Positions 26,976-56,984 are shown, counted from the first letter of the stretch. The stretch: DNA of 64,000 bases from Candidatus Moraniibacteriota bacterium (GCA_037443825.1 JBBINP010000001.1:1430-65429), one strand, 5' to 3'. Numbers and translations are program-made. The notes: generated by a model not told the origin, from the sequence alone.

Positions 26976-27012
26976 GCATAGAGTTAAGATAAAATAAGGT
27001 CAAACTCTATGC
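26976..27012 (+). promoter_or_regulatory. perfect 10-bp inverted repeat GCATAGAGTT-N17-AACTCTATGC overlapping the lexA start codon
   Basis: Arms at 26976-26985 and 27003-27012; the ATG at 27009-27011 lies inside the right arm. Confidence 0.45.
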
Positions 27013-27521
27013 TTACAAAAAGACAAAAACAAGTTTTAGACTTTATATCCTTGTATCACAACAAGAAAGGATATGCGCCCTCTTTGGAGGAAATACGCAA
27101 AAAATTTAAACTCGCATCTGTTTCTACCGCCCATTTTCATGTTAAAAAGTTGCAAGATTTGGGGTTCATAGGAAAACAAGATAATAGATCAAGATCAATC
27201 GATATTTACGAAAAAGAAAAAATGGTTAATATTCCACTGTTTGGTTTAATTGCCGCTGGTCAACCTATTGAGGCGATACAAAACAAAGAGATGATCGCCG
27301 TGCCAAAAAGCAAAGTATCGCGCATAGGTGAATTTTATGCTCTGCGAGTAGTTGGTGACAGTGTGATTGATGAAAATATAAATGACGGCGATTTGGTTTT
27401 GGTAAAACAGCAAGCCACTGCCGAAAACGGACAAAAAGTTGTTGCGCTCGTGGATAACTATAAGGCAACATTAAAAAAATTTTATAAGGAAAAAATATAT
27501 AAGATTACAACCAGCGAATAA
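27009..27521 (+). CDS. lexA: LexA-like repressor (winged-helix DNA-binding domain + S24 peptidase), C-terminus disrupted by a +1 frameshift at an A6 run
   Basis: LexA N-domain (LTKRQKQVLDFI...APSLEEI) and S24 motifs (AAGQPIEA, GDSV, VALVDNYKATLKKFYKE). The annotated frame ends ...KEKIYKITTSE*. The +1 frame from 27475 encodes the expected LexA C-terminus YIRLQPANKTIEPIIIKRDRELAIQGIVIDVIRNE, as in B. subtilis LexA ([31 protein letters not shown]). Confidence 0.75.
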   Translation: MLTKRQKQVLDFISLYHNKKGYAPSLEEIRKKFKLASVSTAHFHVKKLQDLGFIGKQDNRSRSIDIYEKEKMVNIPLFGLIAAGQPIEAIQNKEMIAVPKSKVSRIGEFYALRVVGDSVIDENINDGDLVLVKQQATAENGQKVVALVDNYKATLKKFYKEKIYKITTSE

Positions 27522-27708
27522 AACTATTGAACCGATTATTATAAAAAGAGACAGAGAGCTAGCAATACAAGGCATTGTTATTGATGTAATAAGGAACGAG
27601 GAAAATTTACAGGCGGAAAAACTTTTCAAGAGCAAGGAAATAAAAAGAAATAAAACACTCCCATTAAATAAGATTATTTTAGGCGATGCCGCAGAAGAAT
27701 TAAAAAAG

Positions 27709-28533
27709 TTGCCAAATGAAAGTTGCGATGTAGTTGTTGTTGATCCGCCATATAATATAGGAAAAGATTTCGGAAACAATATAGATAAGCGCGAATTGAA
27801 AGAATATATTGTTTGGTGTAAAGAATGGATAAATGAATCAATTCGCGTAATGAAGCCAACGGGGACAATGTTTATTTATGGATTCAGTGAGATACTTGCT
27901 TATTTATCAGTAGAAATTCCTATCAATAAACGCTGGTTTATTTGGCATTACACGAACAAAAATGTCGCTTCGTTAAATTTTTGGCAAAGAAGCCATGAAT
28001 CAATTATCTGTGCGTGGAAAGATAAACCAATTTTTAATAAAGATGATGTCAGAGAGCCATACACCGAAGGTTTTTTGAATGGAGCCGCCGGAAAAATCAG
28101 AAAAGGAACTGCTGGAAGATTCAGCAGTAGCGGAAAAGAAACGGTTTATAACGCTCATGCCGGCGGGGCCTTGCCTCGCGATGTAATAAAAATACCAGCT
28201 TTGGCTGGCGGGGCGGGAATGAATGAAAGATGGTTTATTTGTAAAACTTGCAAAGATCAAGTTTTTGAACCAAGAGAATTAAAAAATCATGCTAAACATG
28301 ACATAGTCAAACACCCGACACAAAAACCTATTGAATTGTCGCGAAAATTAGTAATGTCCGCGATGCCGAAAAAAGACGGAGTTGTGTTGGTGCCATTTGT
28401 TGGCACTGGCTCTGATTGCGTGGCAGCTAAGGAGTTAGGCCAATTTTATGTAGGGTTTGAAATAAACCCCGATTATATTAAACTGGCTGAAAAATATTTG
28501 GAAAAAAGTAAATACATTTCAAAACTATTTTAA
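27709..28533 (+). CDS. beta-class N4-cytosine/N6-adenine DNA methyltransferase (DPPY motif IV first, FVGTGSD motif I last). Its reading frame is open upstream to 27475 and contiguous with the shifted LexA C-terminus
   Basis: VVVVDPPYN, the PTQKP motif, and the C-terminal FVGTGSDCVAAKELG. 27709 is a TTG. No ATG or GTG occurs in frame between the stop at 27472 and 27709, although the conserved N-terminal region (ILGDAAEELKKLPNES) lies upstream of the TTG. Confidence 0.75.
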   Translation: MPNESCDVVVVDPPYNIGKDFGNNIDKRELKEYIVWCKEWINESIRVMKPTGTMFIYGFSEILAYLSVEIPINKRWFIWHYTNKNVASLNFWQRSHESIICAWKDKPIFNKDDVREPYTEGFLNGAAGKIRKGTAGRFSSSGKETVYNAHAGGALPRDVIKIPALAGGAGMNERWFICKTCKDQVFEPRELKNHAKHDIVKHPTQKPIELSRKLVMSAMPKKDGVVLVPFVGTGSDCVAAKELGQFYVGFEINPDYIKLAEKYLEKSKYISKLF

Positions 28534-28743
28534 AGAATTATCTATTTCTTTTTTCTTTGACAAAAAAGTATTTGGGGTAAAAACTGAGTATTTATCTTTT
28601 GAGTTCCAGTTAAATGATTCTTTAAACTCAAGCCAGCCACTTTCGCGCGAGATTATTCTGTCCGCGATTGTTTCGTGGAATAGAAATATCTTTTTGTATT
28701 CATCGCTTTTTAGAAAATCTGTATTCATAATAAAGCGGATAAA

Positions 28744-31743
28744 TTACTCTCCCCACACGCCCGCTAAAATTTCCTCAATTCGCTTTTGGGCTTCGGATTT
28801 AAGCAGTCGCACGCCTTCCAGCGCCTGCATTTGCTTGTCTAGTTTCTCCACGATTTGGTGTTGGGTTTCGAGGGGTGGAATTAGAAAAAATATGTTTTTT
28901 AGATCTTTTTCATAGATCGCTGCAATATTTGTTGAGGCTTTTTTTATTCCATTTAGCTGATCGGAAACATAATCAGACAAAAAACAATAATTCAAATAAT
29001 CGGGCAATATTTCAGGTTTTGTTTTGATTCTCATCAACATGTGATTAAACAAAACCGGTCTTTCATTATTTTTCTTAAATATTGCCGTTTTTCCTACTAA
29101 TTCAAAGCTGTTACGTGTATTAAACAGAAGGTCATTATCGTCCAGTTTAAATTTGTCTATTTCTTCATTACTAGCTTCAATCGTAACAATACTTGCTTGC
29201 TCAATAAAACCTGACTGAATATTGTTCATTTTGATATATTCAACATCTCCCTTGTCTGTTTCCTCTTTTGTTTTTACTAAGCCAATTTGGGTTGATTCAA
29301 CAATATTTTTAAAAAACTTTTTTTCACCGATAAACGAATGACTACTAATTGAAAAATTATCTTCAATCCTCTCCGCTCCATCAATAATCTGCTTTTGCTT
29401 TTCGATTTTTTCCACGATTTCGTTTTGGACTTCAAGCGGCGGGAGGGGAATTTGTAATGCTAAAATTTCTTCGGTTTTATAGGTTTCGCGACCGGTTGAA
29501 TCTTCAATGCCCAGTTTCGCAAAAGCCGGTTTTAAAAAAATCAACAAATAGTCAGGATTGATTTTTGTATCGTCAATCCTAAACGGAACAAAAGTACCCG
29601 TTGAAACATAATTTTTATCGGAAATCGCAAACGAGCCATTCTGAGTATGCATTTTCCCAATAACAAGATCATCTTTTTGAATAAGAAGTCGTTTTTTGAC
29701 TTTTAGCTCTACCCCCAAACATTCGTTGTTTGTAGAAATAGTATTTGTTTTTGTTGAGATTGTTGGCTCGCAATATATTTTTTCATCTTCAATTTCAATT
29801 TTTCTTTCATCCGACAAATCAATCAAAAATGTGCTCAACGGTTCAAATGTAAATTGCTTTGTTTCTTTCAAAATCTCAAAAAGCTTGGCAAGTTTTTCAT
29901 CTCCTTCTAAAGCATTTTTCTCCAATTTACTCAGAAATTCCCTTGCAATATCCATTTGCAAAGCGTCTTTGGGATTAAAAGAAGCGAGGATTTGTAAAAC
30001 GGTTTTTGGTTCAGCTTTTTGTAATTCTTGATAGCGTTTATCAATTTTTGAGCCGTTTTTTATTTCCACACCTTTTAGTGTTTCTTGCCAATCCTTGATC
30101 TGCTCAATGCTTAAATTACTGCGATAGTTTTGCAAGTTAAAATGGTAGCTATGCGCTTTTTCAATGGCTTTGGCAACTTCGTTGTCAATTTGTCCTTCCA
30201 CGATATTGTCAAACTGCCACAATTTCTCGTCATACATTTCCTTGCTGATTTTTTTGCTTTCCAGTTTTTTATCTAATTGTTCAATAAGTTTTTCTCGTTT
30301 TTTAGCGTTTTTCTCTTTGGTTTTTTCGCTAACCTCTTTTTTTATTCGCTCGGCAATGCGCGGATCAAGGGTTTCGATCTGTTCTTTGGAAATGCAAAAA
30401 CTGTGTTTGGTGTCTTGTGGCTTTTTACTTTGCTTAACTTCTGCAAATAGTTTTAAGAGTTCAGGAATTTGACTGCTTTCAATCGGTTTTCTGTTGGTTC
30501 CCATACTAAAGCCGTCATTTTCTATTTTGTAATACCAAACAAAATCTGTCGGTTCACCTTTTTCAAAATATAAAATCGAAGTTTTGGCTCCTTGCCCGCT
30601 CTTGCTCACAAACACGCCTTGCGGAAGTGAGATAACTGCTCGCAGATTGGTTTCATTCAGAAGTATTTTACGAAGCGCGCAAGCGCTATTTTGCCCCCAA
30701 GTTAAAAAGCCCTCGGAAACAACTACGGCACAACGCCCCTTATCTTTGAGTAAATCAAACATAAGTTTTACGAACAAAATCGTCGTTTCCGATTCCTTGG
30801 AGTATTCTTCCCAAACATTTGGATATGCCGGCTGGTCTCTCTCAGCACCAAAAGGGGGATTGGCAATTACCACGCTTTTGCTTCCGCCGTCTCTGGACGG
30901 ATCGTACATTTTGAGACTGTCGCCTTGATCAATGTTGTGCGGATTAAGTCCGCGAATATACATATTCACCGCCGCCATTTTGCGAATCATTCCCGCATAT
31001 TCAATTCCACCAATTCCGGTGCGATAAAACATATTGGCGATATTTTCGGCAGGAAATTGCCTTGTTTGGCGCGCTTTTTCTATCACATAATCATACGCAT
31101 CAAAAAGAAAACCAGCCGTACCGCAAGCGGGATCAAAAATCGTGTCCGTAAAATCCGGGTCAACCATCTCAACCATCATTTGGCGAATATGGTCTGGCGT
31201 TCGGTAAAGTCCCAAATCTTTTGTTCCGCCGGTTTCAGAAAGAGCGGATTCAATCGCATCGCCGAGTAAATCAGTTTTTAAAATATATTTTTCGTCAATT
31301 TCGTTTACCATGCCGATTACTTCAGCGATCACTCCGCCTTTGACATTATTGGTAAAGTTGGAATTGGCAAAAACTTCTTCCATTAAAACCAACTGATCTT
31401 GCATTTTTTTGGGTAGATTTCCGATGACGACTGTTCGCGCTTTGGAAAGAATGGTGGAGTAAAACGGAAAAATATTTTTATTGAGTTCTGATAAAATTTG
31501 CTCACCGTTCAAAGAAAGCAAATGCGAAAAAAGCAGGCGATAATTTTCACCCGAGAAAAGCTCGCGCAGCGGCTTGAATGATTCGTCTTGTTTGAGTTTG
31601 GCTTCGAAAATGCGAAGTAAACAGAGCTCAATAATATATTCAACACGCATAACCGGCGTGCCGGCAGGACGAAGCTTATTGTGAAGCCTTTTTAGAATAT
31701 TATTTGTTTCGCTATCTGCGTAATGTGTTGTTGATCTGCCCAT
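28744..31743 (-). CDS. Type I restriction-modification HsdM-HsdS fusion (N6-adenine MTase domain + coiled-coil linker + two target-recognition domains)
   Basis: MTase motifs DPACGTAGFL (motif I) and VVIANPPFG (motif IV). A long charged coiled-coil spans about aa 430-640. Two TRD modules each end with the conserved HsdS helices (LPPLEVQNEIVEKIE and IPPLETQHQIVEKLD). Confidence 0.8.
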   Translation of the reverse strand: MGRSTTHYADSETNNILKRLHNKLRPAGTPVMRVEYIIELCLLRIFEAKLKQDESFKPLRELFSGENYRLLFSHLLSLNGEQILSELNKNIFPFYSTILSKARTVVIGNLPKKMQDQLVLMEEVFANSNFTNNVKGGVIAEVIGMVNEIDEKYILKTDLLGDAIESALSETGGTKDLGLYRTPDHIRQMMVEMVDPDFTDTIFDPACGTAGFLFDAYDYVIEKARQTRQFPAENIANMFYRTGIGGIEYAGMIRKMAAVNMYIRGLNPHNIDQGDSLKMYDPSRDGGSKSVVIANPPFGAERDQPAYPNVWEEYSKESETTILFVKLMFDLLKDKGRCAVVVSEGFLTWGQNSACALRKILLNETNLRAVISLPQGVFVSKSGQGAKTSILYFEKGEPTDFVWYYKIENDGFSMGTNRKPIESSQIPELLKLFAEVKQSKKPQDTKHSFCISKEQIETLDPRIAERIKKEVSEKTKEKNAKKREKLIEQLDKKLESKKISKEMYDEKLWQFDNIVEGQIDNEVAKAIEKAHSYHFNLQNYRSNLSIEQIKDWQETLKGVEIKNGSKIDKRYQELQKAEPKTVLQILASFNPKDALQMDIAREFLSKLEKNALEGDEKLAKLFEILKETKQFTFEPLSTFLIDLSDERKIEIEDEKIYCEPTISTKTNTISTNNECLGVELKVKKRLLIQKDDLVIGKMHTQNGSFAISDKNYVSTGTFVPFRIDDTKINPDYLLIFLKPAFAKLGIEDSTGRETYKTEEILALQIPLPPLEVQNEIVEKIEKQKQIIDGAERIEDNFSISSHSFIGEKKFFKNIVESTQIGLVKTKEETDKGDVEYIKMNNIQSGFIEQASIVTIEASNEEIDKFKLDDNDLLFNTRNSFELVGKTAIFKKNNERPVLFNHMLMRIKTKPEILPDYLNYCFLSDYVSDQLNGIKKASTNIAAIYEKDLKNIFFLIPPLETQHQIVEKLDKQMQALEGVRLLKSEAQKRIEEILAGVWGE

Positions 31744-31746
31744 AAC

Positions 31747-34113
31747 TTATACCTTAAATGTTGATTGTAATTCCTCATAAACTTGAGGAAAGCGGTTATC
31801 AAAAACCTGATTTACTTCTTCATAATCCGCGCCAATAATTCTTATAAACACCGGATTATTAAATACTTCTTGCGGTGAAATGCGTTTTTTCTCGGCTATG
31901 TTTGCCGAAACAATATCTTTCATGTCGCGCAAGATTTGAATTTGCTTGTCGTTGAAATTATATGTCTTGATGTATGAATCAAAACCTCTTTCAACTCGTT
32001 CTTTCGGAGTAGGAATTTTTTTGATTTTTAAAGCGTGTAAAAAAAAGTCCCAAATTGATCCCTGTTCAAAATCGTAGGCTTTTTGCAATTGTCCCTCATC
32101 AAGATAAACGTTTGGGTTGCGCGACCAATTTTTAATCTCGTCAATTTCTTGCTCGCTTGGCTCGTAATTTTCATTCGATTTAACTTTCTCTTTAATCTCT
32201 ACGATTTCCGGAGCTTTATCCTTAGTGATCTCTTCTTCAAAAATTTCTTTGGCTTTTTCAATAGGGATATTGTCTATTACTTTTATGCTGTCGCCGTGAA
32301 GGTAAACCCTCTGAATAAGGTGCGCGGGATCTGGATTGTCAATTATACCTGGATTTACCCCACCCCCTCCGCCTCCACTGCCTCCAGTTTGTATTCCTGT
32401 TACAACTTTTTTGTTTTCCTTTACAGTGCCCTTGCCGTTATCTTCCATTTTTTTGCACAGACCAACAAAATCCAAAACTTTAAAACTGAATTTTCCAGTT
32501 TTCGGATCAAGACGAGTTCCACGCCCGAGCATTTGAATATACTTTCCGACTGATTTTGTAAGATTGGCAAAAGCAATATAGCGAACGCAAGGAATATCAA
32601 CGCCGGTACTCATAATATCCACAGAAACAGCGATAAACGGCTTATGATTTTGATCTTTGAACCATTTTTTAAACGTTGCGTTAAGCTCGTCGTTTTCTGA
32701 AATAATAGCTTCTGCATAGCGTGGTGATAATTCATCCTCGCTTGTTTTAAATACTTGATTGATTGCTTTGACGAGTTGAACGGCATGAGCTTGGCTGACG
32801 CCAAACAAAATTACCTTCTCGCCATATTCTGTATTGGCTTTCAGTTCTTCTGCAATTCTTAAGCAATTATCCCAAGCGATAAATTTTCTATTTAGTTGTT
32901 CTAGTTTTATCTTTTTTTCTTGATCCAGCTTAACCAATTCTTCGGTTTTCAAATCAAAGTAGTGATCAAAATTTATGCCAACCTCTCGCGCTGTTTTGGT
33001 AAGTTCTGTTTCAATGGATAAAACTTGATAGGGAGCCAAAAAACCCTCATCAATGCCACGCGTAAGGTCAAATTGATAATCTGGCTCGCCGGTTTCACAG
33101 CCAAAAAGCCGATAAGTATCCAAAATCGCCAAATCTTCATCTGGAATTTCTTTACCTTTTTTAGCAACCGCCGTTCTTGGAGTGGCGGTCAATCCAACAC
33201 GAGGGCACAAGAAATGATCAAAAATCAATTTGCGATTAATATTGATAGATCGGTGACATTCATCAACAATAATCAAATCATAAAAACTGTTTGGAATGTT
33301 TTGATAAATATTCTCTAGCGTGTCAATAACGACGACATGAATTTGTGTGTTTTTGTATTGTTTGTAATTGCCCGAAGTAATACGGATAGCAGAGTATTCC
33401 TTACTAATAAGTGAAAACCCGTCGTTGATAACTTGCTCGGCAAGCATAACTCTATCAACCACAAACAAAACACGCTTTGCCATGTTGTATTCAAATAGTG
33501 CTTTTGTGAAAGCAGCCATTGTTCTTGTCTTTCCAAGACCAGTTGCCATATGAACAAGCATTTTTTGTTTACCCTCTTTGTATTTTTGAATAAGCGCTTG
33601 AATACATTCGGTTTGATAATAGGTTTCTTTACCACAGCTTGGATTTATTCCACCCGCAATACCTTTATCAATCGTGATTACTCGATCAAGATTTATTTTT
33701 CTTGCCTGCTCGATTTTAAGTTGCATTTCTTCAAGTGTCATCAAGCTGTTGACTTGGCGAAATTCTCCCGCTTCAAGCCCTTTCCATTCGGTGTCATAAA
33801 AAAGGGTTCGCTCCGGAGAACAAGCATACAAAAAACGAGGTTTTAAAACTGAAGCGTAAAGTGTACGAAGTTTTGTTAGCGCCTTTTTCTCGTCTTCAAA
33901 TTTATTCTCAAAAATAGCAACAATATTATGATTCAAATCCAATAGCGTAATGTCCGGTTTTACACTTTCTCGACCTTCAAATAGCTTTTGTTGTTCTGGT
34001 GTAAGTGAATATTCTTGTTGGTACAACAAAGTATCGCCGACTTTCCAGCCGAGTTTTTTTAGGTCTTCAATTATTTTCAGATCTGTGTCCGTTGCTTCGT
34101 TAATTCTAGGCAT
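31747..34113 (-). CDS. Type I restriction enzyme R subunit-like (N-terminal PD-(D/E)xK nuclease + SF2 helicase)
   Basis: Nuclease motif KPDITLL...IFENK. Helicase motifs HMATGLGKT (Walker A), IIVDECHRS (Walker B), LTATP and QMLGRGTR. A poly-Gly tract (GGSGGGGGG) is present. Confidence 0.8.
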   Translation of the reverse strand: MPRINEATDTDLKIIEDLKKLGWKVGDTLLYQQEYSLTPEQQKLFEGRESVKPDITLLDLNHNIVAIFENKFEDEKKALTKLRTLYASVLKPRFLYACSPERTLFYDTEWKGLEAGEFRQVNSLMTLEEMQLKIEQARKINLDRVITIDKGIAGGINPSCGKETYYQTECIQALIQKYKEGKQKMLVHMATGLGKTRTMAAFTKALFEYNMAKRVLFVVDRVMLAEQVINDGFSLISKEYSAIRITSGNYKQYKNTQIHVVVIDTLENIYQNIPNSFYDLIIVDECHRSININRKLIFDHFLCPRVGLTATPRTAVAKKGKEIPDEDLAILDTYRLFGCETGEPDYQFDLTRGIDEGFLAPYQVLSIETELTKTAREVGINFDHYFDLKTEELVKLDQEKKIKLEQLNRKFIAWDNCLRIAEELKANTEYGEKVILFGVSQAHAVQLVKAINQVFKTSEDELSPRYAEAIISENDELNATFKKWFKDQNHKPFIAVSVDIMSTGVDIPCVRYIAFANLTKSVGKYIQMLGRGTRLDPKTGKFSFKVLDFVGLCKKMEDNGKGTVKENKKVVTGIQTGGSGGGGGGVNPGIIDNPDPAHLIQRVYLHGDSIKVIDNIPIEKAKEIFEEEITKDKAPEIVEIKEKVKSNENYEPSEQEIDEIKNWSRNPNVYLDEGQLQKAYDFEQGSIWDFFLHALKIKKIPTPKERVERGFDSYIKTYNFNDKQIQILRDMKDIVSANIAEKKRISPQEVFNNPVFIRIIGADYEEVNQVFDNRFPQVYEELQSTFKV

Positions 34114-35424: not shown

Positions 35425-36852
35425 ATGAAAATAAAAATAAAAAAAATAAAAATTCAGCCGTTACTCGCGTTTTTTTTGATTATTGCAATGTTTCTTTTTT
35501 CGGGATGTTTGAAACAATCGTCTGTCGCGTATAAGGTTGATTTGGAGATCTGGGGGCCTTTTGACAGCGGGGATGTTTTTGACAGGATTATCGGCGATTA
35601 TAAAATGATCAATCCTTATGTCAGAGAAATAAAATACCGCAAATTTACGGTGGATGCCTATAAAAACGATCTAATCAACGCGCTGGCCACGGGACAGGGG
35701 CCGGATATTTTTCTGATTAACAACACTTGGACGCCTTCCTTTCAGGACAAAATAGAGCCGGCGCCCGAAGCAATCATCAAGGAATATGAATTCCGCAATA
35801 CTTTTGTGGATGTGGCAGTCGGCGATTTTTTGGAAAAGGGAAAAATATACGGTATTCCGCTTTCCGTTGATTCGCTGGCTCTTTATTACAACAAAGACAT
35901 GTTTAACGCCGCCGGCATCACTTCTCCGCCGAAAACATGGGAAGATTTTAATGATGCCGTGTATCGTCTGAATAGAGTGGATTCGTATGGAGAGTTTATT
36001 CAGTCGGGGGCGGCGCTGGGCACGGCCTACAATATCAACCGCGCCACGGATATTTTGGGTTTGCTCATGTTTCAGAACGGAACGCAAATGGTTAATCAGG
36101 AACGGACAGAAGCCATTTTTGACAGGCCGATAAACATCGGAAATGAAACTGTCAATGCCGGAGAAAGCGCGCTCAAATATTATACTGCTTTCGCCCAATC
36201 AAATAACTCTCTTTATAGTTGGAATCCGCGAATGCATTATTCCATTGATTCTTTTTACGAAGGAAAAACGGCGATGATGATCAATTATTCCTGGCATTAC
36301 GAAACCATTAAAAACAAAAATTCCAAACTGAATTTCGCGGTCGCTCCCGTTCCGCAAATTGACATTCATAATCCTGTGAACTTCGCCAATTATTGGGGGT
36401 TCGCGGTTTCCAAAAATAAAATTTCTTCCGCCGATCCGCAACAAAAAGCCGCGCAAAGCAAAATAGCATATGACAAAAACAAAACGCGCATACATGAATC
36501 CTGGCAATTTTTGCGTTATTTGGCGATGAAAAATGGCGGGCAGATAACGCTTATCAACGGCATTGCCGGCACTTTCAAAACCTTTCCTCTAAAATCCGAT
36601 CCGGCCGATGAATATCTTAAAATGACCAAAAGGCCGGCGGCAAGGCGTGATATAATAGAAAAGCAAAAAACCGATCCGATTCTCAATCCTTTTGCTTTTG
36701 GAAATTTAACCGCCAAAAGCTGGCATCAGAAAAATCCGGAAGCGGCGGAGCATGTTTTAAAAGAAATGATTGATTCAATAAATCGGGGAGACACAACCGC
36801 TTATGAAGCTTTAAAACTGGCGGCTGTTCGTGTTTCGCAAACAATGAGATGA
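35425..36852 (+). CDS. extracellular solute-binding lipoprotein (ABC transporter substrate-binding, family 1), orphan
   Basis: Lipobox LFSGC; SBP-like segments GPDIFLINNTW and YGIPLSVDSLALYYNKDMF. The start was moved to ATG 35425. No adjacent permease or ATPase. Confidence 0.65.
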   Translation: MKIKIKKIKIQPLLAFFLIIAMFLFSGCLKQSSVAYKVDLEIWGPFDSGDVFDRIIGDYKMINPYVREIKYRKFTVDAYKNDLINALATGQGPDIFLINNTWTPSFQDKIEPAPEAIIKEYEFRNTFVDVAVGDFLEKGKIYGIPLSVDSLALYYNKDMFNAAGITSPPKTWEDFNDAVYRLNRVDSYGEFIQSGAALGTAYNINRATDILGLLMFQNGTQMVNQERTEAIFDRPINIGNETVNAGESALKYYTAFAQSNNSLYSWNPRMHYSIDSFYEGKTAMMINYSWHYETIKNKNSKLNFAVAPVPQIDIHNPVNFANYWGFAVSKNKISSADPQQKAAQSKIAYDKNKTRIHESWQFLRYLAMKNGGQITLINGIAGTFKTFPLKSDPADEYLKMTKRPAARRDIIEKQKTDPILNPFAFGNLTAKSWHQKNPEAAEHVLKEMIDSINRGDTTAYEALKLAAVRVSQTMR

Positions 36853-36910: not shown

Positions 36911-37672
36911 ATGAAATACATAAAAGCAGAAAATAAAGTGTTTTTTTTGGTAATATTAACTTTTTTGTTATTTTTTGGAGTAGGCATCTTTTCTGCTAAC
37001 GGAAGTCAGGGGTCCGGAGGCATTGTGCCCTGCGGACGGTATATCGGCACCGCGGAGGAGCAAAAACCATGCACGCTTTGCCATTTAATAATAGGCATTT
37101 ATCGGATTATTGATTACGGAAGAAAAATTTTGACGTTTGTGGCTATCACGACGCTGGTGATCGGCGGCATAATTTATATTTTGAGCGCCGGCAATCAAAA
37201 TATGATAAATCTGGCCAAAAGCGTGATCTGGAAATCTTTGGCGGGTTTTGCCATTATTTTGGGCGCTTGGGTAATAATCAATTATGCGATGTTTTTGATC
37301 AGCACCAAAACCGATCTTGGCGTGGGGGCGACGAAATGGAATGAATTCAGTTGCAGAACCGATTCCACCACATCCATCGCGGTAGCGCCTCCCAGCAATA
37401 AAAAAGAAGAATGCGGAAAAATAGCGGGAATTAAATCTGCTTGTTTTAAACAGTGCCTAAGTCATACCAATAAATATTCCGCCGAATGTCCATCATCTGG
37501 CGAGGAGTGCTGTCAGTTTCAAAGCGGACCGGGTGATGCGTGCGGACCTGGACTGGGAGGTATTTGTTTTGTTTGCGAAGGAGCTTGTGTTTTTAATGCA
37601 TGTCCTGATCCTTATGGGCGTCTTATTGGGGGTACGGATTGTCCTGACGAGAAAATATGTTGCGGGCTATAG
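36911..37672 (+). CDS. VirB2/TrbC-like pilin candidate with a cysteine-rich (16 Cys) C-terminal domain
   Basis: Signal/TM segment, the motif IVPCGRY...CTLCHL, a second TM segment (ITTLVIGGIIYILSAG) shared with the next gene, then a ~100-aa C-terminus with 16 cysteines ending CCGL. Confidence 0.55.
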   Translation: MKYIKAENKVFFLVILTFLLFFGVGIFSANGSQGSGGIVPCGRYIGTAEEQKPCTLCHLIIGIYRIIDYGRKILTFVAITTLVIGGIIYILSAGNQNMINLAKSVIWKSLAGFAIILGAWVIINYAMFLISTKTDLGVGATKWNEFSCRTDSTTSIAVAPPSNKKEECGKIAGIKSACFKQCLSHTNKYSAECPSSGEECCQFQSGPGDACGPGLGGICFVCEGACVFNACPDPYGRLIGGTDCPDEKICCGL

Positions 37673-37768: not shown

Positions 37769-38413
37769 ATGAAAAAAATATTATTTTTTGTTGTCAGCAT
37801 AAGTTTTTTGTTTACATTAAGTGCGAGTGGCACATTTGGAAGCGATCCGCCACCCGGCGGTAATCCACCTGGCGCAACTACTCACGCCGTAAAATTTGAA
37901 AATCCGTTAAAATTTGACACAGTGGAAGATATTCTAACCAGCTTGCTTAACAGTTTGCGCGGGGTGATTGTGGTAATCTCGCTTGTTTTTATTGTTATCG
38001 GGGCGATTTTGTATATTACCTCGGCTGGCAGCGAAGAAAGAATTAAATCAGCCAAAAAGGCGATTACCGCTTCCATGATCGGACTGGCAATCGGGATTGC
38101 GGCGCCCTCATTCCTCAAGGAAATAGCCACTATCTTGGGTTGGACAAGCCAAGTTACCGATCCTAGCGGGCAAAATATTCTTACTATCAAACAAATCGCT
38201 CTCAATACTCTGGAATTTCTTTTGGGCATTGTCGGTATTTTTGCCATCATTATGCTGGTGGTGGGCGGAATTTCTTATTTCGGAGCGGGTTTAAATGAAA
38301 AACAAGCCGAATCTTCCAAAAAAATAATCTGGTTTTCCGTTTTGGGCATCCTGGTTGCCATGGCGGCGCTTGTTATAGTTAAGCAGATAGCCGCGTTTTT
38401 TGGCGTTTCATAA
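37769..38413 (+). CDS. VirB2/TrbC-like pilin candidate (paralog of the upstream gene; signal peptide + 3-4 TM helices)
   Basis: Shares the segment ISLVFIVIGAILYITSAGSEE with the upstream gene; hydrophobic helical hairpins throughout. Confidence 0.5.
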   Translation: MKKILFFVVSISFLFTLSASGTFGSDPPPGGNPPGATTHAVKFENPLKFDTVEDILTSLLNSLRGVIVVISLVFIVIGAILYITSAGSEERIKSAKKAITASMIGLAIGIAAPSFLKEIATILGWTSQVTDPSGQNILTIKQIALNTLEFLLGIVGIFAIIMLVVGGISYFGAGLNEKQAESSKKIIWFSVLGILVAMAALVIVKQIAAFFGVS

Positions 38414-38425
38414 AGCGTAAAATTT

Positions 38426-38902
38426 ATGATATTCGGAGTTCCGCAATTTATTAATATTGAAGACAAAGTGGCCGGCCCCTTGACTGGCAAGCAATTGCTT
38501 TGGATGATCGGCATGGGAGCGGCGCTCTTGGTATTGTGGAACACATTGGAAGACAACGCTTTTTTTGTCGCGGCTATTCCGGTAGTTTTGATTTTTTGCG
38601 CTTTTGCTTTCTATCGTCCGTATGAACAATCAATGGTTGAATTTGTGGGACATTCCGTGATTTTCTTGTTTCAGCCGAAAATTTACATATGGAAGAGAAC
38701 TGGAGAGCCGGAAATTTTGGCAAAAATCCAAAAAACAAAAATATCCTTTTCGGGGGAGGAAAAAAAATACACTTCGGACGATTTCGGATCTTTCGCTGAT
38801 CTTCTGGATTCGGATGGTGGCAGGCGCGGAGGAAAAATCATGAATCTTATCGATGAGCGGGAAAAAAAGAAACATAAAAAGAAATTTCCTTTTTTAATGT
38901 AA
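38426..38902 (+). CDS. PrgI-family / VirB3-like small membrane protein
   Basis: N-terminus ...DKVAGPLTGKQLLWMIGMGAALLV matches the PrgI-family signature (G-LT-RQ) from memory, followed by two TM helices; it sits directly upstream of VirB4. Confidence 0.55.
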   Translation: MIFGVPQFINIEDKVAGPLTGKQLLWMIGMGAALLVLWNTLEDNAFFVAAIPVVLIFCAFAFYRPYEQSMVEFVGHSVIFLFQPKIYIWKRTGEPEILAKIQKTKISFSGEEKKYTSDDFGSFADLLDSDGGRRGGKIMNLIDEREKKKHKKKFPFLM

Positions 38903-38904
38903 TT

Positions 38905-39585
38905 ATGGAAACATTGCATTCCAAAAAAAATATCGGGGGCGCGAGCACCCAAAAATACGTTGATATTGAAGAAATCAAGGATGGCGTTATTATGCTTAAA
39001 AACGGCGCTTTGCGCGCTGTGCTTTTGGTTTCCGCGGTTAATTTTGACCTCAAATCGTCGGAAGAGCAAGACGGGATTATCGGACAATATCAAAATTTTC
39101 TTAACTCCCTTGATTTTCCCTTGCAAATCATTGTCAGTTCCCGCAAACTAAATATTGAGCCGTATTTAAAATTTATTTCAGAGCACGAAAGAAGGCAAAC
39201 CAATGAGCTATTGCGGCTGCAAATATCCGAATATAAAAATTTTGTCCGCAACCTCACGGAAGTTTCCAATATTATGTCAAAATATTTTTACATCACGGTG
39301 CCTTTCGCGCCGGTGGAAAACAAGGAAAAAGGAATTTTCAGCCAATTATCAGGACTTCTTCGTCCGAAACAGGCGATTATTCAGAAACGGGAATTGTTTG
39401 AAACGTATAAAAGCCAGTTATGGCAGCGCGTGGATCATATTGTCGCCAGCCTTTCAGGCATCGGGCTCAAAATTGTTCCGCTCAAGACGGATGAAATTAT
39501 TGAACTTCTTTATAATTCATACAACCCGAGCATTTATAATAACGCGATTATCAGGGATAGTGAAAAAATTGAATTGGTAAAATAA
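38905..39585 (+). CDS. VirB4/TraC-family ATPase, N-terminal domain encoded as a separate ORF
   Basis: 226 aa matching the N-terminal domain that precedes the ATPase core in full-length VirB4. It is separated from the ATPase ORF by a stop plus frame change (TAA at 39583, next ATG at 39593). Confidence 0.55.
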   Translation: METLHSKKNIGGASTQKYVDIEEIKDGVIMLKNGALRAVLLVSAVNFDLKSSEEQDGIIGQYQNFLNSLDFPLQIIVSSRKLNIEPYLKFISEHERRQTNELLRLQISEYKNFVRNLTEVSNIMSKYFYITVPFAPVENKEKGIFSQLSGLLRPKQAIIQKRELFETYKSQLWQRVDHIVASLSGIGLKIVPLKTDEIIELLYNSYNPSIYNNAIIRDSEKIELVK

Positions 39586-39592
39586 AAAAATT

Positions 39593-41401
39593 ATGTTTGG
39601 ATGGCAAAATAAAAACAAGAAGGATGAGGTTTTAGAAGACGAGCGAATTTATCGGCAGGGCTTGGCGACCATAAAAGATCTTATTGCTCCGGCATCGGTG
39701 CGGGTGAATATTGATTATCTGCATGTCGGAGAAACTTTCGTCAAAACTCTTTTTGTTATTGCTTATCCGAGATTTCTTCATACTAACTGGTTTTCCACCA
39801 TTATTAATATGGACAATTCCATGGATATCGCGATGTTTGTGCATCCAATCAACACAAACGATGTTTTGAAGGAACTTCGCAAAAACGCGACAAGAGTGGA
39901 ATCGCAAATTCAGCTGGAAAGCGAAGGAGGAAAAGTTCGCGATCCCATTCTTGAAACGGCGATTCATGACATTGAGGAGTTGCGGGACAAATTGCAGCAA
40001 GGCACGGAAAAATTTTTTCGTTTCGGTTTGTACGTAAGTGTCTACGGGCAAACACTGGAAGAAGCCAGAAAAATCAGCCAGCAAATAGAAGCGATTCTGG
40101 AAGCCCAGCTGGTGTATGTCAAGCCGGCGGTAATGCGGGCGGAGAACGGCTTTTCTTCCACATTGCCACTGGGAAACGATGAATTGGATGTCGCCAACAA
40201 CCTCAATACATCTCCTCTTTCCACTACTTTTCCTTTTGTTTCGGCGGAATTATCATCCAATGATGGAATTCTTTACGGCATCAATCGGCACAACAATTCG
40301 CTGATTATTTTTGATCGGTTTAAAATGGAAAACGCCAATATGGTGATATTCGCTAAATCCGGCGCGGGCAAAAGTTACACTGTCAAGCTTGAAGTTTTTC
40401 GTTCCATGATGCTGGGAACAAATATCATTATCATAGATCCTGAAAATGAATACCATTATTTGTGCGAAAAAGTGGGAGGTACTTTTGTGAAAGTTTCGCT
40501 TAATTCTCATTTTCGCATAAATCCCTTTGATCTTCCCAAAATCAAAGAAGATGATGATCCGGAAGAAGTAATTCGCAACAATATCGCCAACCTAATCGGC
40601 CTTTTGCATATTATGCTGGGAACAGTGACTCCGGAAGAAGATTCTATCCTGGATCATGCCATCAGAGAAACATACAACATCCGCGACATAACAGTCCAGA
40701 GCAATTTTCAATCTTTCACTTCCAACTCTTTTCCGACTATGTCGGATTTGTATGAAGTTCTTTCCAATATGGAGGGAGCGGAATCGCTTGCCATGCGGCT
40801 GGCCAAATACACAGAAGGAATTTTTTCCGGATTTCTCAATCATCCCACCAACGTGAAAGTGGACAATCAAATGGTGGTATTTAACATCCGTGACTTGGAG
40901 GAAGAATTGCGTCCGGTGGCGATGTATATCGTGCTGCATTTCATTTGGAACGAAATGCGTTCGGAGCTTAAAAAAAGAATAGTCGTTGTTGACGAAGCAT
41001 GGGTAATGATGCAATATGAAGACGCGGCTTCTTTCATGTTCGGCATTGCCAAGCGTTGCCGAAAATATTACACCGGACTTACGACCATTACTCAGGACGT
41101 GAATGATTTTATGGGATCAAGATACGGAAAACCGATTGTCACCAATTCTTCCATGCAGCTGCTTTTGCGCCAATCGCCGGCTTCCATTGACATTCTGGTG
41201 GAAACTTTTTACTTGACTGATCAGGAAAAATTCCTGCTTTTGGAAAGCAGCGTCGGTGAAGGCATTTTTTTTGCCGGACTTAAGCATGCGGCCGTCAAGG
41301 TTGTGTCTTCTTACACCGAAGACCAGGTGATCACTTCGGATCCCAAACAGCTTCTGGAAATTGAACAAGCCAAAAAAGAATTTGAAGAGTTGGAAGGATA
41401 A
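39593..41401 (+). CDS. VirB4/TrbE/CagE-family T4SS ATPase, C-terminal ATPase domain
   Basis: Walker A VIFAKSGAGKSYTV, Walker B RIVVVDEAWVMM, and the FVHPINTNDVLKEL region typical of VirB4. Confidence 0.8.
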   Translation: MFGWQNKNKKDEVLEDERIYRQGLATIKDLIAPASVRVNIDYLHVGETFVKTLFVIAYPRFLHTNWFSTIINMDNSMDIAMFVHPINTNDVLKELRKNATRVESQIQLESEGGKVRDPILETAIHDIEELRDKLQQGTEKFFRFGLYVSVYGQTLEEARKISQQIEAILEAQLVYVKPAVMRAENGFSSTLPLGNDELDVANNLNTSPLSTTFPFVSAELSSNDGILYGINRHNNSLIIFDRFKMENANMVIFAKSGAGKSYTVKLEVFRSMMLGTNIIIIDPENEYHYLCEKVGGTFVKVSLNSHFRINPFDLPKIKEDDDPEEVIRNNIANLIGLLHIMLGTVTPEEDSILDHAIRETYNIRDITVQSNFQSFTSNSFPTMSDLYEVLSNMEGAESLAMRLAKYTEGIFSGFLNHPTNVKVDNQMVVFNIRDLEEELRPVAMYIVLHFIWNEMRSELKKRIVVVDEAWVMMQYEDAASFMFGIAKRCRKYYTGLTTITQDVNDFMGSRYGKPIVTNSSMQLLLRQSPASIDILVETFYLTDQEKFLLLESSVGEGIFFAGLKHAAVKVVSSYTEDQVITSDPKQLLEIEQAKKEFEELEG

Positions 41402-41476: not shown

Positions 41477-42136
41477 ATGCCAATAAGCGATTACGAAAAA
41501 CGCAAACAGCTTCAAGATGATCGAAGAAGGGAATGGGCGCAGAACAATGTTCCCTATCAGCGCATCATGCGTGGGCGGATAGCGGCTAATGTTGCGCGGA
41601 CGGCTAACAAAGAAGAAAGTTATGCGCAATGGAGAAATTCGCTAAAGGCAGCACAAAATAAGATTGATGAAATACAAAGGGACACATCATCAGTCCGGTC
41701 TGTTTTCAAAGGTAAAAAGGGAACAATGCCATTAAGGGCGGCTAAATTAGGATTTGAATTTAAAAAAAGAATTAAGGAACTAGACACAACACCTTTTAAA
41801 TTTTTATTTATAATAGCCATTTTTTCTGACTTGGGAGATTTTACATGGATCATAGGGTTTAGTCTAAAAGTTATTCTATTCATTGCTCTTTTGGGCCATG
41901 GGGCTTGGAAGAAAAAATTAGGCGCTAGAATCATCTACTGGCTATTAATAGTGCTTGACATAATTCCTTTCCTTGGAGCACTGCCACTAAGCACTATTGC
42001 AGTGTTACTTATTTGGCGGGATGTGAAAAAAGAAATCAAAGAAAATGAGGAAAAAATAAAGAAAATAGAAAAAAATCCTGAAGAATTTTGGGACGCCGAA
42101 TATGACGAAGACGAAGAAATGGACGAAGTGACGTAA
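41477..42136 (+). CDS. small membrane protein (2-3 TM helices, charged N- and C-terminal tails), T4SS-cluster associated
   Basis: Hydrophobic segments FKFLFIIAIF...WIIGFSLKVILFIALLG and IIYWLLIVLDIIPFLGALPLSTIAVLLIW; acidic C-terminus. Confidence 0.5.
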   Translation: MPISDYEKRKQLQDDRRREWAQNNVPYQRIMRGRIAANVARTANKEESYAQWRNSLKAAQNKIDEIQRDTSSVRSVFKGKKGTMPLRAAKLGFEFKKRIKELDTTPFKFLFIIAIFSDLGDFTWIIGFSLKVILFIALLGHGAWKKKLGARIIYWLLIVLDIIPFLGALPLSTIAVLLIWRDVKKEIKENEEKIKKIEKNPEEFWDAEYDEDEEMDEVT

Positions 42137-42205: not shown

Positions 42206-43732
42206 ATGCCTTCTAAAATATTTTCTGCCGTAACTATCGGCCTTGACAGCGATTTGGTGGAAGTGGAGGTGGATGTTTTGGGTCAGGGACTTCATAATTT
42301 TACGATTGTCGGCCTTCCCGATACGGCCATTAAAGAATCCAGGGAGCGTGTCAGTTCGGCGCTCAAAAACAGCGGTTTTCGTCCGCCTCATCAATGCGGA
42401 CGAATTACCGTAAATTTGGCTCCGGCGGATATTCCCAAAATGGCGCCGATCTATGATTTGCCGATGGCGCTCGGGTTTTTGTTGGCGACGCGCCAGATAG
42501 ATTTTTTTCACGGCGACAAGCTTTTTGTCGGCGAGCTGGCTTTGGACGGACGGATTCGCCCCGTTCAGGGCGTTTTGCCGATCGCGATGTTTGCCGAAAA
42601 AAAAGGAATCGCGGAAATCTACGTTCCTCGCGAAAACTCTTCGGAAGCGAGCATGATGCGGAAAACTAAAGTCATTCCGGCGGAAAATCTGTATTCCTTG
42701 ATCAGTCATTTGACGGGAGAGTCAAAAATTGACGCTTATTCGGGCGAGGATATTAAAAAAATTTTTGAAAAAAACAAACCGCTTTCAGATATGGCGCATG
42801 TCCGCGGACAGGAACACGCCAAAAGATCTTTGGAGATAGCGGCGGCGGGAGGGCACAACGTTATTTTTAGCGGTCCGCCAGGTTCCGGAAAAACTCTTTT
42901 GGCCAAGACTGTGCCTTCTATTTTGCCAAAACTTGATTGCGAAGAAGCTTTGGAAATAACCAAAATATTTTCAGTTTCGGGAAAATTGGCGAAAAATGAG
43001 GCAATTGTCACTGTCCGGCCTTTTCGTTCTCCGCATCACAGCGCGAGTTCGGTGTCGCTTGTCGGGGGCGGGACTTATCCTAAGCCGGGCGAAATATCTC
43101 TGGCGCATCGCGGCGTGTTGTTTTTGGATGAATTTGCTGAATTTCCCCGGAGCGTTCTGGAAAATTTGCGGCAACCGCTGGAAGACGGCGTTATTACGGT
43201 TTCCCGCGCCAAAGGATCTTTGGAGTTTCCGGCCAGGTTTATTTTAATTGCGGCCATGAATCCATGTCCATGCGGCAACGCGACTGATCCGGAAAAAATT
43301 TGCTCTTGCGCTCCGTCGCAAATTATCAGATACCAGCGGAGAATTTCCGGGCCGATTTTGGACAGGATTGATCTTCATGTGGAAGTTCCGCGGTTAAAAT
43401 TTGAAAAAATTGAAGAAGAAACTCCTGGTGAAAAAAGCGCGGATATCAGAAAGAGGGTGGAATCCGCGCGAGCCATCCAAAAGAAACGTTTTCAAAAACT
43501 TCCTATTATGATTAACAGCGAAATGAATTCCCAGCAAATCAGAGAATTTTGCAAACTGGACAATGCCGGAGCGGAACTTCTTCGCAGGGCGGTTTCAACC
43601 ATGCGCTTAAGCGCGCGGGCTTATTATCGCATTATTAAAATTGCTCGCACTATTTCCGATTTGGCAAATGAAGAAAATATCGCGCCGGCGCATATTGCCG
43701 AAGCTATCCAGTACCGTTTTAAAAGCGAATAA
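42206..43732 (+). CDS. comM: ComM/YifB-family Mg-chelatase-like AAA+ ATPase
   Basis: N-terminal ChlI/YifB domain, AAA+ Walker A GPPGSGKTLLAK, and the zinc-finger-like CPCGNATDPEKICSC. Confidence 0.85.
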   Translation: MPSKIFSAVTIGLDSDLVEVEVDVLGQGLHNFTIVGLPDTAIKESRERVSSALKNSGFRPPHQCGRITVNLAPADIPKMAPIYDLPMALGFLLATRQIDFFHGDKLFVGELALDGRIRPVQGVLPIAMFAEKKGIAEIYVPRENSSEASMMRKTKVIPAENLYSLISHLTGESKIDAYSGEDIKKIFEKNKPLSDMAHVRGQEHAKRSLEIAAAGGHNVIFSGPPGSGKTLLAKTVPSILPKLDCEEALEITKIFSVSGKLAKNEAIVTVRPFRSPHHSASSVSLVGGGTYPKPGEISLAHRGVLFLDEFAEFPRSVLENLRQPLEDGVITVSRAKGSLEFPARFILIAAMNPCPCGNATDPEKICSCAPSQIIRYQRRISGPILDRIDLHVEVPRLKFEKIEEETPGEKSADIRKRVESARAIQKKRFQKLPIMINSEMNSQQIREFCKLDNAGAELLRRAVSTMRLSARAYYRIIKIARTISDLANEENIAPAHIAEAIQYRFKSE

Positions 43733-56567: not shown

Positions 56568-56984
56568 ATGGACAAAAAATCAAAAATATTGTTCATTGTT
56601 TTGGGGATAATGATTGCCGGGTCAATCGCGTTGACCTATTGGCGGATAATGGTTAAAAAGGATTATATTATAGAGGGACAGGCGGACTGCGATCCGTATA
56701 TCAGCAGGTGTTTTGTGTGGGAATGCGATCCGGCGTCAAACGAGGAAGGAGAAAAATGCACTGGCAATCCGGATGAAGATGTATGGCACTATCAAGTAGT
56801 GAGAAGAAAAGCTTTTAATATTCCGCTTTGCGATCCGGAAAGGGATGAATCTTGCAATCCGTGGGATTGCGCGGAAGGAGAAATGGATTGCTCGGTTGAT
56901 TTTTGCGCCGAAGATCGGTTAGAAACGCAATACGCCGCCTATTGCAGTGATCCGGTTAAATATTCCGAAGAGAGAATCCATTAG
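56568..56984 (+). CDS. membrane-anchored Cys/Asp/Glu-rich small protein. An acidic Cys-containing repeat tail continues in the +2 frame (56987-57097), suggesting a frameshift
   Basis: TM helix followed by 12 cysteines. Downstream in another frame lies EEESVGCEEESVECETEDGNECDPNSEECRNSKETE, which contains a 21-nt tandem repeat, has no start codon, and matches the compositional theme. Confidence 0.55.
   Translation: MDKKSKILFIVLGIMIAGSIALTYWRIMVKKDYIIEGQADCDPYISRCFVWECDPASNEEGEKCTGNPDEDVWHYQVVRRKAFNIPLCDPERDESCNPWDCAEGEMDCSVDFCAEDRLETQYAAYCSDPVKYSEERIH

Follow-up and report, generated by a model that had tools for sequence, protein, structure and literature searches.

A VirB2-like type IV secretion system pilin from a Moranbacteria bacterium carries a tail of cysteine-rich modules, one of them with a predicted β-defensin-like fold

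The analyzed DNA is a stretch of 64,000 nucleotides (hereafter, the window) from Candidatus Moraniibacteriota bacterium (GCA_037443825.1, JBBINP010000001.1:1430-65429). The gene at positions 36911..37672 on the plus strand encodes a protein of 253 amino acids (aa), identified here by sequence comparison as a VirB2-like conjugative or type IV secretion system (T4SS) pilin of the PF18895 superfamily, which heads a chromosomal T4SS gene cluster. This pilin bears a C-terminal tail made of cysteine-rich modules of a previously undescribed family. In our searches, the module family was found only in T4SS pilins of the Candidate Phyla Radiation (CPR), and the second of the two modules in the tail is predicted to adopt a β-defensin-like fold. 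The tail may be a pilus-displayed module that engages the envelope of a host bacterium, a reading to which we assign a probability of about 0.5. Ribosomal protein L1 shares 68-78% identity with proteins labelled Moranbacteria, Parcubacteria, or Patescibacteria, which places the organism among the Moranbacteria/Patescibacteria (CPR); the episymbiont setting proposed for it in the initial annotation is therefore reasonable.

The ATG of the open reading frame (ORF) is the earliest possible start downstream of the preceding stop. Hydropathy analysis revealed three hydrophobic segments, namely a signal peptide (residues 4-32) and two membrane helices (residues ~70-95 and 104-133). The full-length AlphaFold2 (AF2) model contains helices at residues 6-30, 55-91, and 96-133, the membrane helices having a predicted local distance difference test (pLDDT) score of ~80. 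All parts of the gene are given here on the plus strand. The signal peptide, supported by both the hydrophobic segment and the AF2 helix, covers residues 1 to ~31 (36911..37003); its cleavage site, placed by eye, would lie near FSA-NG↓S. It is followed by an N-terminal ectodomain segment with the invariant alignment columns P40-C41 and C54-T-L-C57-H58 (37004..37087) and by the two membrane helices of the pilin fold with the short polar loop SAGNQNM between them (37088..37303), the latter recognized by AF2, hydropathy, PF18895, and hhalign. The junction after the second membrane helix, W143-x2-F146-x-C148-x-T-x-S (37304..37366), was delineated with the family alignment and the locus homologs; W143, F146, and C148 are invariant, and T150 and S152 are near-invariant. 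The low-complexity linker TTSIAVAPPSNKKEE (37367..37411), read from the sequence, connects the junction to the modules, and linkers rich in S, T, G, and P occupy the equivalent position in homologs.

In total, the pilin contains 18 Cys residues: C41, C54, and C57 ahead of the first membrane helix, C148 after the second one, and 14 in the last 86 residues. The 106-aa tail has 15 Cys (14%), compared with 0.94% Cys over 14,969 residues encoded by 36 genes of the window, an enrichment not attributable to chance since the binomial P is ~1e-13. Once C148, which belongs to the pilin core, is set aside, the tail has an even number of Cys (6 + 8), and the Cys counts of most other family tails are likewise even. 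Cysteines 168, 178, 182, 193, 200, and 201 form module A, delimited by Cys spacing (C-x9-C-x3-C-x10-CP-x5-CC, residues 168-201, 37412..37513). Cysteines 211, 219, 222, 226, 231, 244, 250, and 251 form module B (CG-x6-C-[x2-C-x3-C]-x4-CP-x11-CP-x4-CC, residues 211-251, 37541..37663), which has the same six-Cys framework with an extra Cys pair inside the loop between the second and third framework cysteines. The initial annotation gave exactly these gene boundaries and described two helices followed by an extracellular Cys-rich domain, all of which agrees with the topology signals; the domain is also conserved. It also quoted the tail sequence correctly and miscounted its cysteines as 16; the CC and CxxxC spacings that it listed occur twice each, and the third type is CxxC (once) rather than CxC. 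The single 16-Cys knot that it proposed resolves into the core residue C148 plus two tandem modules with a six-Cys framework.

The module family was delineated using an alignment of 35 copies, with the consensus C1-G-x4-G-x-C2 … C3-P-x-G-[YW] … G … C4-x-S-G-x2-C5-C6. In this alignment C2, C4, C5, and C6 are invariant, C1 and C3 are present in at least 90% of the copies, and the Gly, Pro, and aromatic positions are also conserved; the copies come from different metagenome-assembled genomes (MAGs), and the comparison of homologs suggested as a check showed the framework cysteines to be kept. Module B scored 21.1 bits against a hidden Markov model (HMM) built only from the modules of other proteins, compared with a maximum of 14.5 bits among 2000 shuffles, and is therefore a secure member of the family. 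Module A appears to be a divergent copy of uncertain affiliation. Another, different Cys-rich stretch, 'W.C..G.C…S.EECE.SPTC…C.DY…C…PCC…C', was found in the homologs P0005, L002 (5977-7203), and P0018, where it lies between the junction and the defensin-like module. Module A may be related to this 'EEC..C..C..CC' stretch rather than to the defensin-like module.

The distribution of the modules is narrow. At the threshold E <= 1e-3, hmmsearch against 1.84e9 representative proteins yielded 14 matches, 12 of them genuine, and all 12 are fusions with T4SS pilins containing from one to five tandem module copies. Of the 4,154 ORFs in the window plus 63 loci, the module was detected in 11, all of which are pilins. 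No matches were found by a word-index homology search with a seven-module alignment, and searches of PDB sequences with either the tail or the module profile as query produced no meaningful match (hydrophobin, E 0.1) and no defensin. The modules are located either at the C-terminus or at the mature N-terminus, in several proteins after the signal peptide and ahead of the pilin domain. Their net charge is close to neutral, with a mean of +0.2 and a range from -3 to +4 across the 35 copies; modules A and B of the window protein have charges of -3 and +1, respectively.

Assignment of the protein to the VirB2-like pilins is based on three lines of evidence: the PF18895 (T4SS_pilin) match over both helices, similarity to the neighboring pilin, and an operon-like T4SS gene order. 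The Pfam match itself is weak (E 1.2e-3, 19.3 bits). Comparison by hhalign of the family alignment with the neighboring PF18895 pilin gave a probability of 96% (E 2.6e-9), and precomputed PF18895 matches exist for the homologs P0003, P0005, and P0007-P0010. Foldseek searches with the full-length model retrieved generic helical hairpins, the Aeropyrum pernix conjugation pilin 8dfu being at rank 7 (TMt 0.59, E 4). Type IV pilins have a short basic leader cleaved at G↓F/M, a Glu at position 5, and only one hydrophobic helix, located at the N-terminus. The analyzed protein has a long classical signal peptide, two later helices, no G-F-x3-E motif, and no Pfam match to type IV pilus families, so a type IV pilus pilin was ruled out. 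Thus, the designation of the product as a pilin in the initial annotation holds for a pilin-type protein with two helices, and its class is the VirB2-like T4SS one and not that of the type IV pilus.

The pilin gene is preceded immediately by a gene for an SBP_bac_1 solute-binding lipoprotein (35425..36852; Pfam, and a 475-aa gene call in the nearly identical locus L001). Downstream are genes for a tandem double T4SS pilin with two PF18895 units, four helices, and no Cys (37769..38413; Pfam E 1.1e-17, two stretches), a PrgI (VirB3-like) T4SS membrane protein (38426..38902; PF12666, E 1.3e-7), a TraC-like T4SS protein (38905..39585; PF26593 on the identical L001 gene, and synteny), and a VirB4-type T4SS ATPase (39593..41401; P-loop_TraG 1.8e-27, AAA_10, DUF87). 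All of them are on the plus strand. The order of lipoprotein, Cys-core pilin or pilins, double pilin, PrgI, TraC-like protein, and VirB4 is strictly conserved in more than 25 related loci detected by tblastn. The protein encoded at 37769..38413 had been described as a second, tail-less paralog and hence as the major subunit. It does lack the tail and any Cys, and it is a tandem double pilin rather than a simple paralog. The argument for the major subunit is weakened because the double-pilin orthologs in L002 (11524-12273) and L016 (6635-7537) bear the same six-Cys module at the mature N-terminus; in L002 this N-terminal unit, read by eye, is C-x6-C-x4-C-x10-C-x5-CC.

The ORF was found in the same frame and with the same length in three independent assemblies, including that of the window; a 99%-identical ortholog (P0001) and an identical one (P0022) occur in other assemblies. 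Together with the recognition of module B by the HMM, this rules out a frameshift or low-complexity artefact, previously named among the grounds for abandoning the domain. That the tail is a product of sequencing or assembly errors, or the extension of a decaying pseudogene, is scarcely credible: close orthologs number only two and the tails of homologs are very variable, which would suit this explanation, but the preserved frame and length and the conservation of the module in 35 copies across different MAGs with all framework cysteines retained speak against it. Locus L001 (GCA_964511735.1) is 99.98% identical to the window over 20.7 kb by blastn, with three mismatches. All three lie within 21 nucleotides of module A (37438..37458), one being synonymous and the others causing F179Y and L183P, and the allele of the window recurs in the independent Logan run SRR11582139. 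This cluster of substitutions hints at either an exposed loop that varies or a short patch of recombination, three sites being too few to decide. A diversity-generating retroelement was also considered and rejected, as no template-like repeat of the tail is present anywhere in the window.

Only 10 homologs of the pilin were found in an index of 5.8 billion proteins. A scan of GTDB with one genome per species provided 62 loci, mostly from Moranbacteria. All members of the family have the same architecture, in which a signal peptide is followed by P-C-G…C-T-L-C-H, two helices, and W-x2-F-x-C-x-T-x-S. Four core cysteines (C41, C54, C57, and C148) are invariant and probably form two disulfides that tie together both external stubs of the pilin. 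The string C54-T-L-C57-H58 (37070-37084) has the form of the CXXCH signature for attachment of haem c and lies outside the membrane. The C.LCH motif was found in all 34 locus homologs and in P0001-P0010; because P0012 has CTLCD, the His is dispensable. Haem attachment at this site was judged unlikely, given the Asp in place of His in P0012 and the absence of cytochrome c maturation genes from the window.

The sequence after the junction is polymorphic in the family, and some members have no tail at all. Tails of Cys modules were found in the window protein and in L002, L004, L016, L019, L022, and L047. Tails of other types were recorded in L008, L009, L013, L015, L017, L018, L021, L026, L028, L029, L031, L036, and P0009. 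Among them, the L021 tail contains an SLT_3 lysozyme-like domain (E 6e-6), and that of L029 contains a BD-FAE/abhydrolase esterase (5e-36). The P0009 tail has only weak matches to CHAP/NlpC, and the tails of L008 and L018 have an HExxH motif with weak metalloprotease matches. For the tails of nine proteins, the sole matches among PDB sequences were Hedgehog N-domains (E 0.025-0.5), aligned on the H…D/HxH zinc motif; these tails may have a fold like that of the LAS peptidases. Taken together, the polymorphic C-terminal slot points to a pilin-based platform that would display or deliver envelope-attacking domains. No description of VirB2-like pilins fused to additional domains was found in the literature on the patescibacterial VirB2-like pilin arrays.

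Modeling of module B alone by AF2 with a 26-row module alignment resulted in a small β-sheet (pLDDT 76.7, predicted TM score 0.56), and the model contains the three-stranded antiparallel β-sheet characteristic of β-defensins. Foldseek comparison with 350,542 chains gave as the top eight matches AvBD3, three hBD1 mutants, anthopleurin-B, SCRiP1, APETx1, and Ueq 12-1. Other fold matches of the model included the C-domain of the oyster big defensin, sea-anemone neurotoxin I, hBD2, and again SCRiP1. The individual Foldseek scores are weak (E ~1), as is usual for domains of 40 residues; the fold was called because the matches are unanimous in fold class and not because of any single score. Two independent structure-comparison programs pointed to this one class. 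Module B is thus predicted to adopt a β-defensin-like fold.

Sequence comparison provides partial agreement. The β-defensin framework has ranges of C-x4-8-C-x3-5-C-x9-13-C-x4-7-CC, with G-x-C ahead of the second Cys, and its cysteines pair as C1-C5, C2-C4, and C3-C6. The frameworks of the modules are C-x6-13-C-x3-11-C-x10-15-C-x5-6(11)-CC with G-x-C in more than 90% of copies, so the framework is similar and the loops often exceed the canonical ranges; loop lengths are 9/3/10/6/0 in module A and 7/(2,3,4)/12/5/0, with two extra Cys, in module B. PF00711 (Defensin_beta) was touched by 5 of the 35 modules, more than any other Pfam family (best E 0.27), and not by a module of the window protein. 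A hand-typed β-defensin profile, which retrieves from the PDB only β-defensins, crotamine, and spheniscin, was aligned by hhalign with a score of 16.7-16.9 (P 1.5e-3, probability 17%). This was the best profile score among the eight Cys-rich families compared, and it exceeds those of all 250 column shuffles (mean 7.6, standard deviation 1.7, maximum 13.5). With Pfam E values of at least 0.27 and an hhalign probability of 17%, a significant match to a β-defensin profile was not reached. The knottin, EGF, WAP, hevein, α-defensin, and plant-defensin families scored at most 11.2 in hhalign, and none of them appeared among the fold matches. EGF and granulin were represented by lone weak Pfam touches (EGF_Teneurin, 3.7e-3; Granulin, 0.017) in one of the 35 modules each, without any fold match. 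Hence the knottin, EGF, or granulin profiles proposed earlier for this domain received no support, and a β-defensin-like fold is predicted for module B instead. The modules also depart from β-defensins in being neither cationic nor free secreted peptides, as their charge is near-neutral and they are part of the pilin chain. The resemblance to β-defensins in framework and predicted fold is real, and it may reflect either homology or convergence.

In VirB2 and TraA pilins both termini are located outside the membrane and, once the pilus has assembled, face outward; therefore, an N- or C-terminal appendage of such a pilin would decorate the filament. The patescibacterial T4SS, together with arrays of VirB2-like pilins, is believed to provide a pilus or conduit that leads to the host (PMC12102498; PMC12857230). 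This T4SS is chromosomal and lacks a relaxase (PMC12102498), and in Southlakia epibionticum it is essential for epibiotic growth (PMC12857230). According to the mechanism favored here, the protein would be exported by the Sec pathway and lose its signal peptide, leaving the two helices in the membrane and both termini outside. The ectodomain stubs at the N- and C-terminal sides would probably be linked by C41, C54, C57, and C148. Upon entry of the subunit into the T4SS pilus or conduit, the 100-aa tail would project from the outer surface, and the modules on their flexible linker would act as rigid, protease-resistant binding heads for a component of the envelope of the host bacterium. Such engagement could promote or specify the contact used by the T4SS of the epibiont. 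Display toward the host envelope is favored because the modules occur exclusively in pilins, are carried on flexible linkers at either exposed terminus, are neutral in charge, and share the slot with envelope-enzyme domains of paralogs. A surface-display or adhesin role for the tail is the most plausible one, and the near-neutral charge of the modules favors a binding rather than a lytic role. We infer the disulfides, the display on the pilus, and the binding to the host envelope from these features.

Several observations weigh against this mechanism or the predictions on which it draws. The PF18895 score of the pilin is below the gathering score of 26.6 bits. Module A obtained 1.4 bits from the leave-out HMM applied to module B, that is, no independent recognition. 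In the full-length AF2 model the pLDDT of the tail is 22-41; the separate model of module B was built from an alignment of 26 rows, and AF2 may have favored a six-Cys fold that it already knew. If each subunit had so large a tail, packing of the pilus might be impeded, and the pilin could therefore be a minor or non-polymerising component. Finally, neither Dsb and VKOR genes nor any other gene for an enzyme that forms disulfides was found in the 64-kb window.

The lack of Dsb and VKOR genes in the window, taken with the anoxic lifestyle of many CPR bacteria, would also suit an explanation in which the cysteines bind a metal (Zn, an Fe-S cluster, or haem via the core CXXCH) or form some other disulfide scaffold serving as a rigid spacer, the likeness to defensins being an AF2 artefact. 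The CXXCH string in the core, the weak statistics of the fold search, and the fact that disulfide connectivity is not readable from the model are compatible with it. We nevertheless regard it as very unlikely: the tail is extracytoplasmic with an even number of Cys (14, the fifteenth, C148, being part of the core), it has one His and few further typical metal ligands, and the His of the core motif is replaced in P0012. Moreover, the two structure-comparison programs agreed on one fold class, and none of the 250 column shuffles reached the observed score of the β-defensin profile.

The predicted fold and the content of the slot could be read instead as signs of a pilus-tethered weapon. The defensin-like modules would then attach to lipid II or to lipids of the host membrane, make the host envelope locally weaker or permeable, and help the T4SS to breach the wall, a function equivalent to that of the tails with peptidoglycan hydrolase or esterase domains in paralogous pilins. 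Binding to lipid II is established for several defensins, among them hBD3 and those of oysters, and the slot otherwise holds envelope-degrading domains (SLT_3, weak CHAP/NlpC, LAS-like, and esterase). On the other hand, membrane-active β-defensins are strongly cationic and the modules are neutral to acidic, and the similarity to defensin sequences is not significant by either Pfam or hhalign. The β-defensin fold also serves in toxins, enzyme inhibitors, and plain binding scaffolds (PMC6339383; PMC6835510). On balance, this weapon-like role is considered unlikely.

The conserved junction raises a further alternative, namely that the pilin core is a carrier and the tail is cut off at W..F.C.T.S or in the linker and released as a free defensin-like peptide or inhibitor. 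All family members have the strictly conserved junction followed by a low-complexity linker, and the enzyme payloads of paralogs could act as free proteins. In RP4 TrbC the C-terminus is removed during pilin maturation, and C-terminal processing does occur in TrbC-type pilins. The tick carboxypeptidase inhibitor, composed of tandem β-defensin-like repeats, is a soluble protease inhibitor (PMC6339383). Against release, no TraF-like or other maturation protease was seen adjoining the cluster, the modules of other pilins follow the signal peptide and precede the pilin domain, a position fitting display better, and the conservation of C148 in the junction along with the N-terminal Cys suggests a structural role. 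Release of the tail is considered improbable, and display of the tail on the pilus for contact with the host envelope is retained as the preferred explanation.

A stronger version of the defensin reading joins several of these proposals. Trans-defensins have been reported only from animals, and the defensins hitherto described from bacteria belong to the cis-defensins (PMC11561630). The modules could be genuine prokaryotic trans-defensins, the first outside animals, acting in CPR epibionts as pilus-tethered heads that target the envelope within a wider, previously undescribed polymorphic platform of VirB2-like pilins with defensin-like, lysozyme-like, LAS peptidase, CHAP, esterase, and protease domains. 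As a joint claim, this seems quite unlikely.

Further observations were made around the gene and elsewhere in the window. A scan for promoters and terminators around the pilin gene gave results no better than shuffles. The SBP_bac_1 lipoprotein has the lipobox LFSGC and is encoded in the same orientation as the pilin, and no ABC permease gene adjoins it in the window. Directly after the VirB4 gene there is a 219-aa ORF (41477-42136) whose product is charged in its N-terminal half, has three hydrophobic helices, and ends in an acidic tail; no Pfam family matches it, and among the related loci tblastn finds it only in the near-identical L001. In L001, a scaffold gap of 100 N (15351-15450, corresponding to ~42206-42260 of the window) flanked by a duplicated 55-nucleotide stretch is located at the start of a ComM/Mg-chelatase-like gene; it is an assembly artefact and not a biological difference. 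A 138-aa protein encoded at 56568-56984 has an N-terminal membrane anchor, 10 Cys in an acidic ectodomain, and no Pfam match, and is another candidate disulfide-rich surface protein. Genes for defense and DNA modification flank the region at 11258-14364 and 27009-34113. They encode an EcoRI-like adenine methylase, a Bro-N protein, GmrSD-HNH, a LexA-like repressor with an N4/N6 methylase, and a type I restriction-modification system with fused M and S subunits (999 aa) and an R subunit (788 aa). The remaining part of the window is ordinary chromosome with rpoB, nusG, L11, L1, SHMT, gatB, uvrD, lgt, lnt, and smpB.

In the one Patescibacterium tested genetically, the T4SS and the arrays of VirB2-like pilins are essential for epibiotic life (PMC12857230). 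An exposed pilin end with swappable contents, occupied in this genome by disulfide-rich modules and in relatives by domains resembling cell-wall hydrolases, offers concrete hypotheses and reagents for studies of how ultrasmall bacteria recognize and breach their hosts. If a structure confirms the bacterial β-defensin-like fold, the question of defensin origins would be reopened, with deep ancestry, transfer, and convergence to be considered, and a compact, neutral disulfide scaffold would be added to the repertoire of protein engineering.

Among known systems, the closest are the PF18895 pilins and the patescibacterial arrays of VirB2-like pilins (PMC12102498; arrays attributed to Wang et al., 2023, as cited in PMC12857230). 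The shared features are the signal peptide, two helices with the short polar loop 'YI.SAG', adjoining genes for further pilins, PrgI/VirB3, and VirB4, a chromosomal location in CPR genomes, and the absence of a relaxase or coupling protein nearby. Unlike other PF18895/VirB2 pilins, the analyzed pilin has four conserved core Cys including the CXXCH and a Cys-rich tail of ~100 aa, and it belongs to a subfamily with a polymorphic C-terminal slot. Functional modules grafted on pilins are found in the type IV pilins PilB and PilC of Streptococcus sanguinis, and VirB5 and CagL are adhesins of T4SS pili. Common to these systems and to the analyzed pilin is the idea that a subunit of the filament carries or presents an adhesive module at the surface of the pilus; however, PilB and PilC are pilins with class III signal peptides and VirB5 is a separate tip protein, whereas here the module is fused directly to the VirB2-like subunit.

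The related β-defensin-fold (trans-defensin) structures, which comprise β-defensins, the C-terminal domain of big defensins, and cnidarian peptides, include hBD4 (5ki9), hBD2 (1fd3), AvBD3 (7lzl), Cg-BigDef1 (6qbk), Sh1 (2sh1), and SCRiP1 (7lx4). The modules resemble β-defensins in the six-Cys framework ending with CC, G-x-C before the second Cys, C-P after the second loop, and Gly before the fourth Cys, and the predicted small β-sheet fold superposes at 1.4-3 Å. In contrast to β-defensins, the modules are bacterial, tethered to a membrane pilin, present in one to five tandem copies, and neutral or acidic rather than cationic; their loops between the second and third and between the third and fourth Cys are longer, and module B has the extra Cys pair. 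Two consecutive β-defensin-like modules in one polypeptide, as in the window protein, are also found in the tick carboxypeptidase inhibitor and in ascidian rusticalin (PMC6339383). Rusticalin joins such repeats with a LAS peptidase of the Hedgehog/DD-peptidase fold (PMC6339383), and both of these domain types were found as tails in the pilin family. While the tick inhibitor and rusticalin are soluble animal proteins, the pilin family has the two domain types on different paralogs, fused to pilins.

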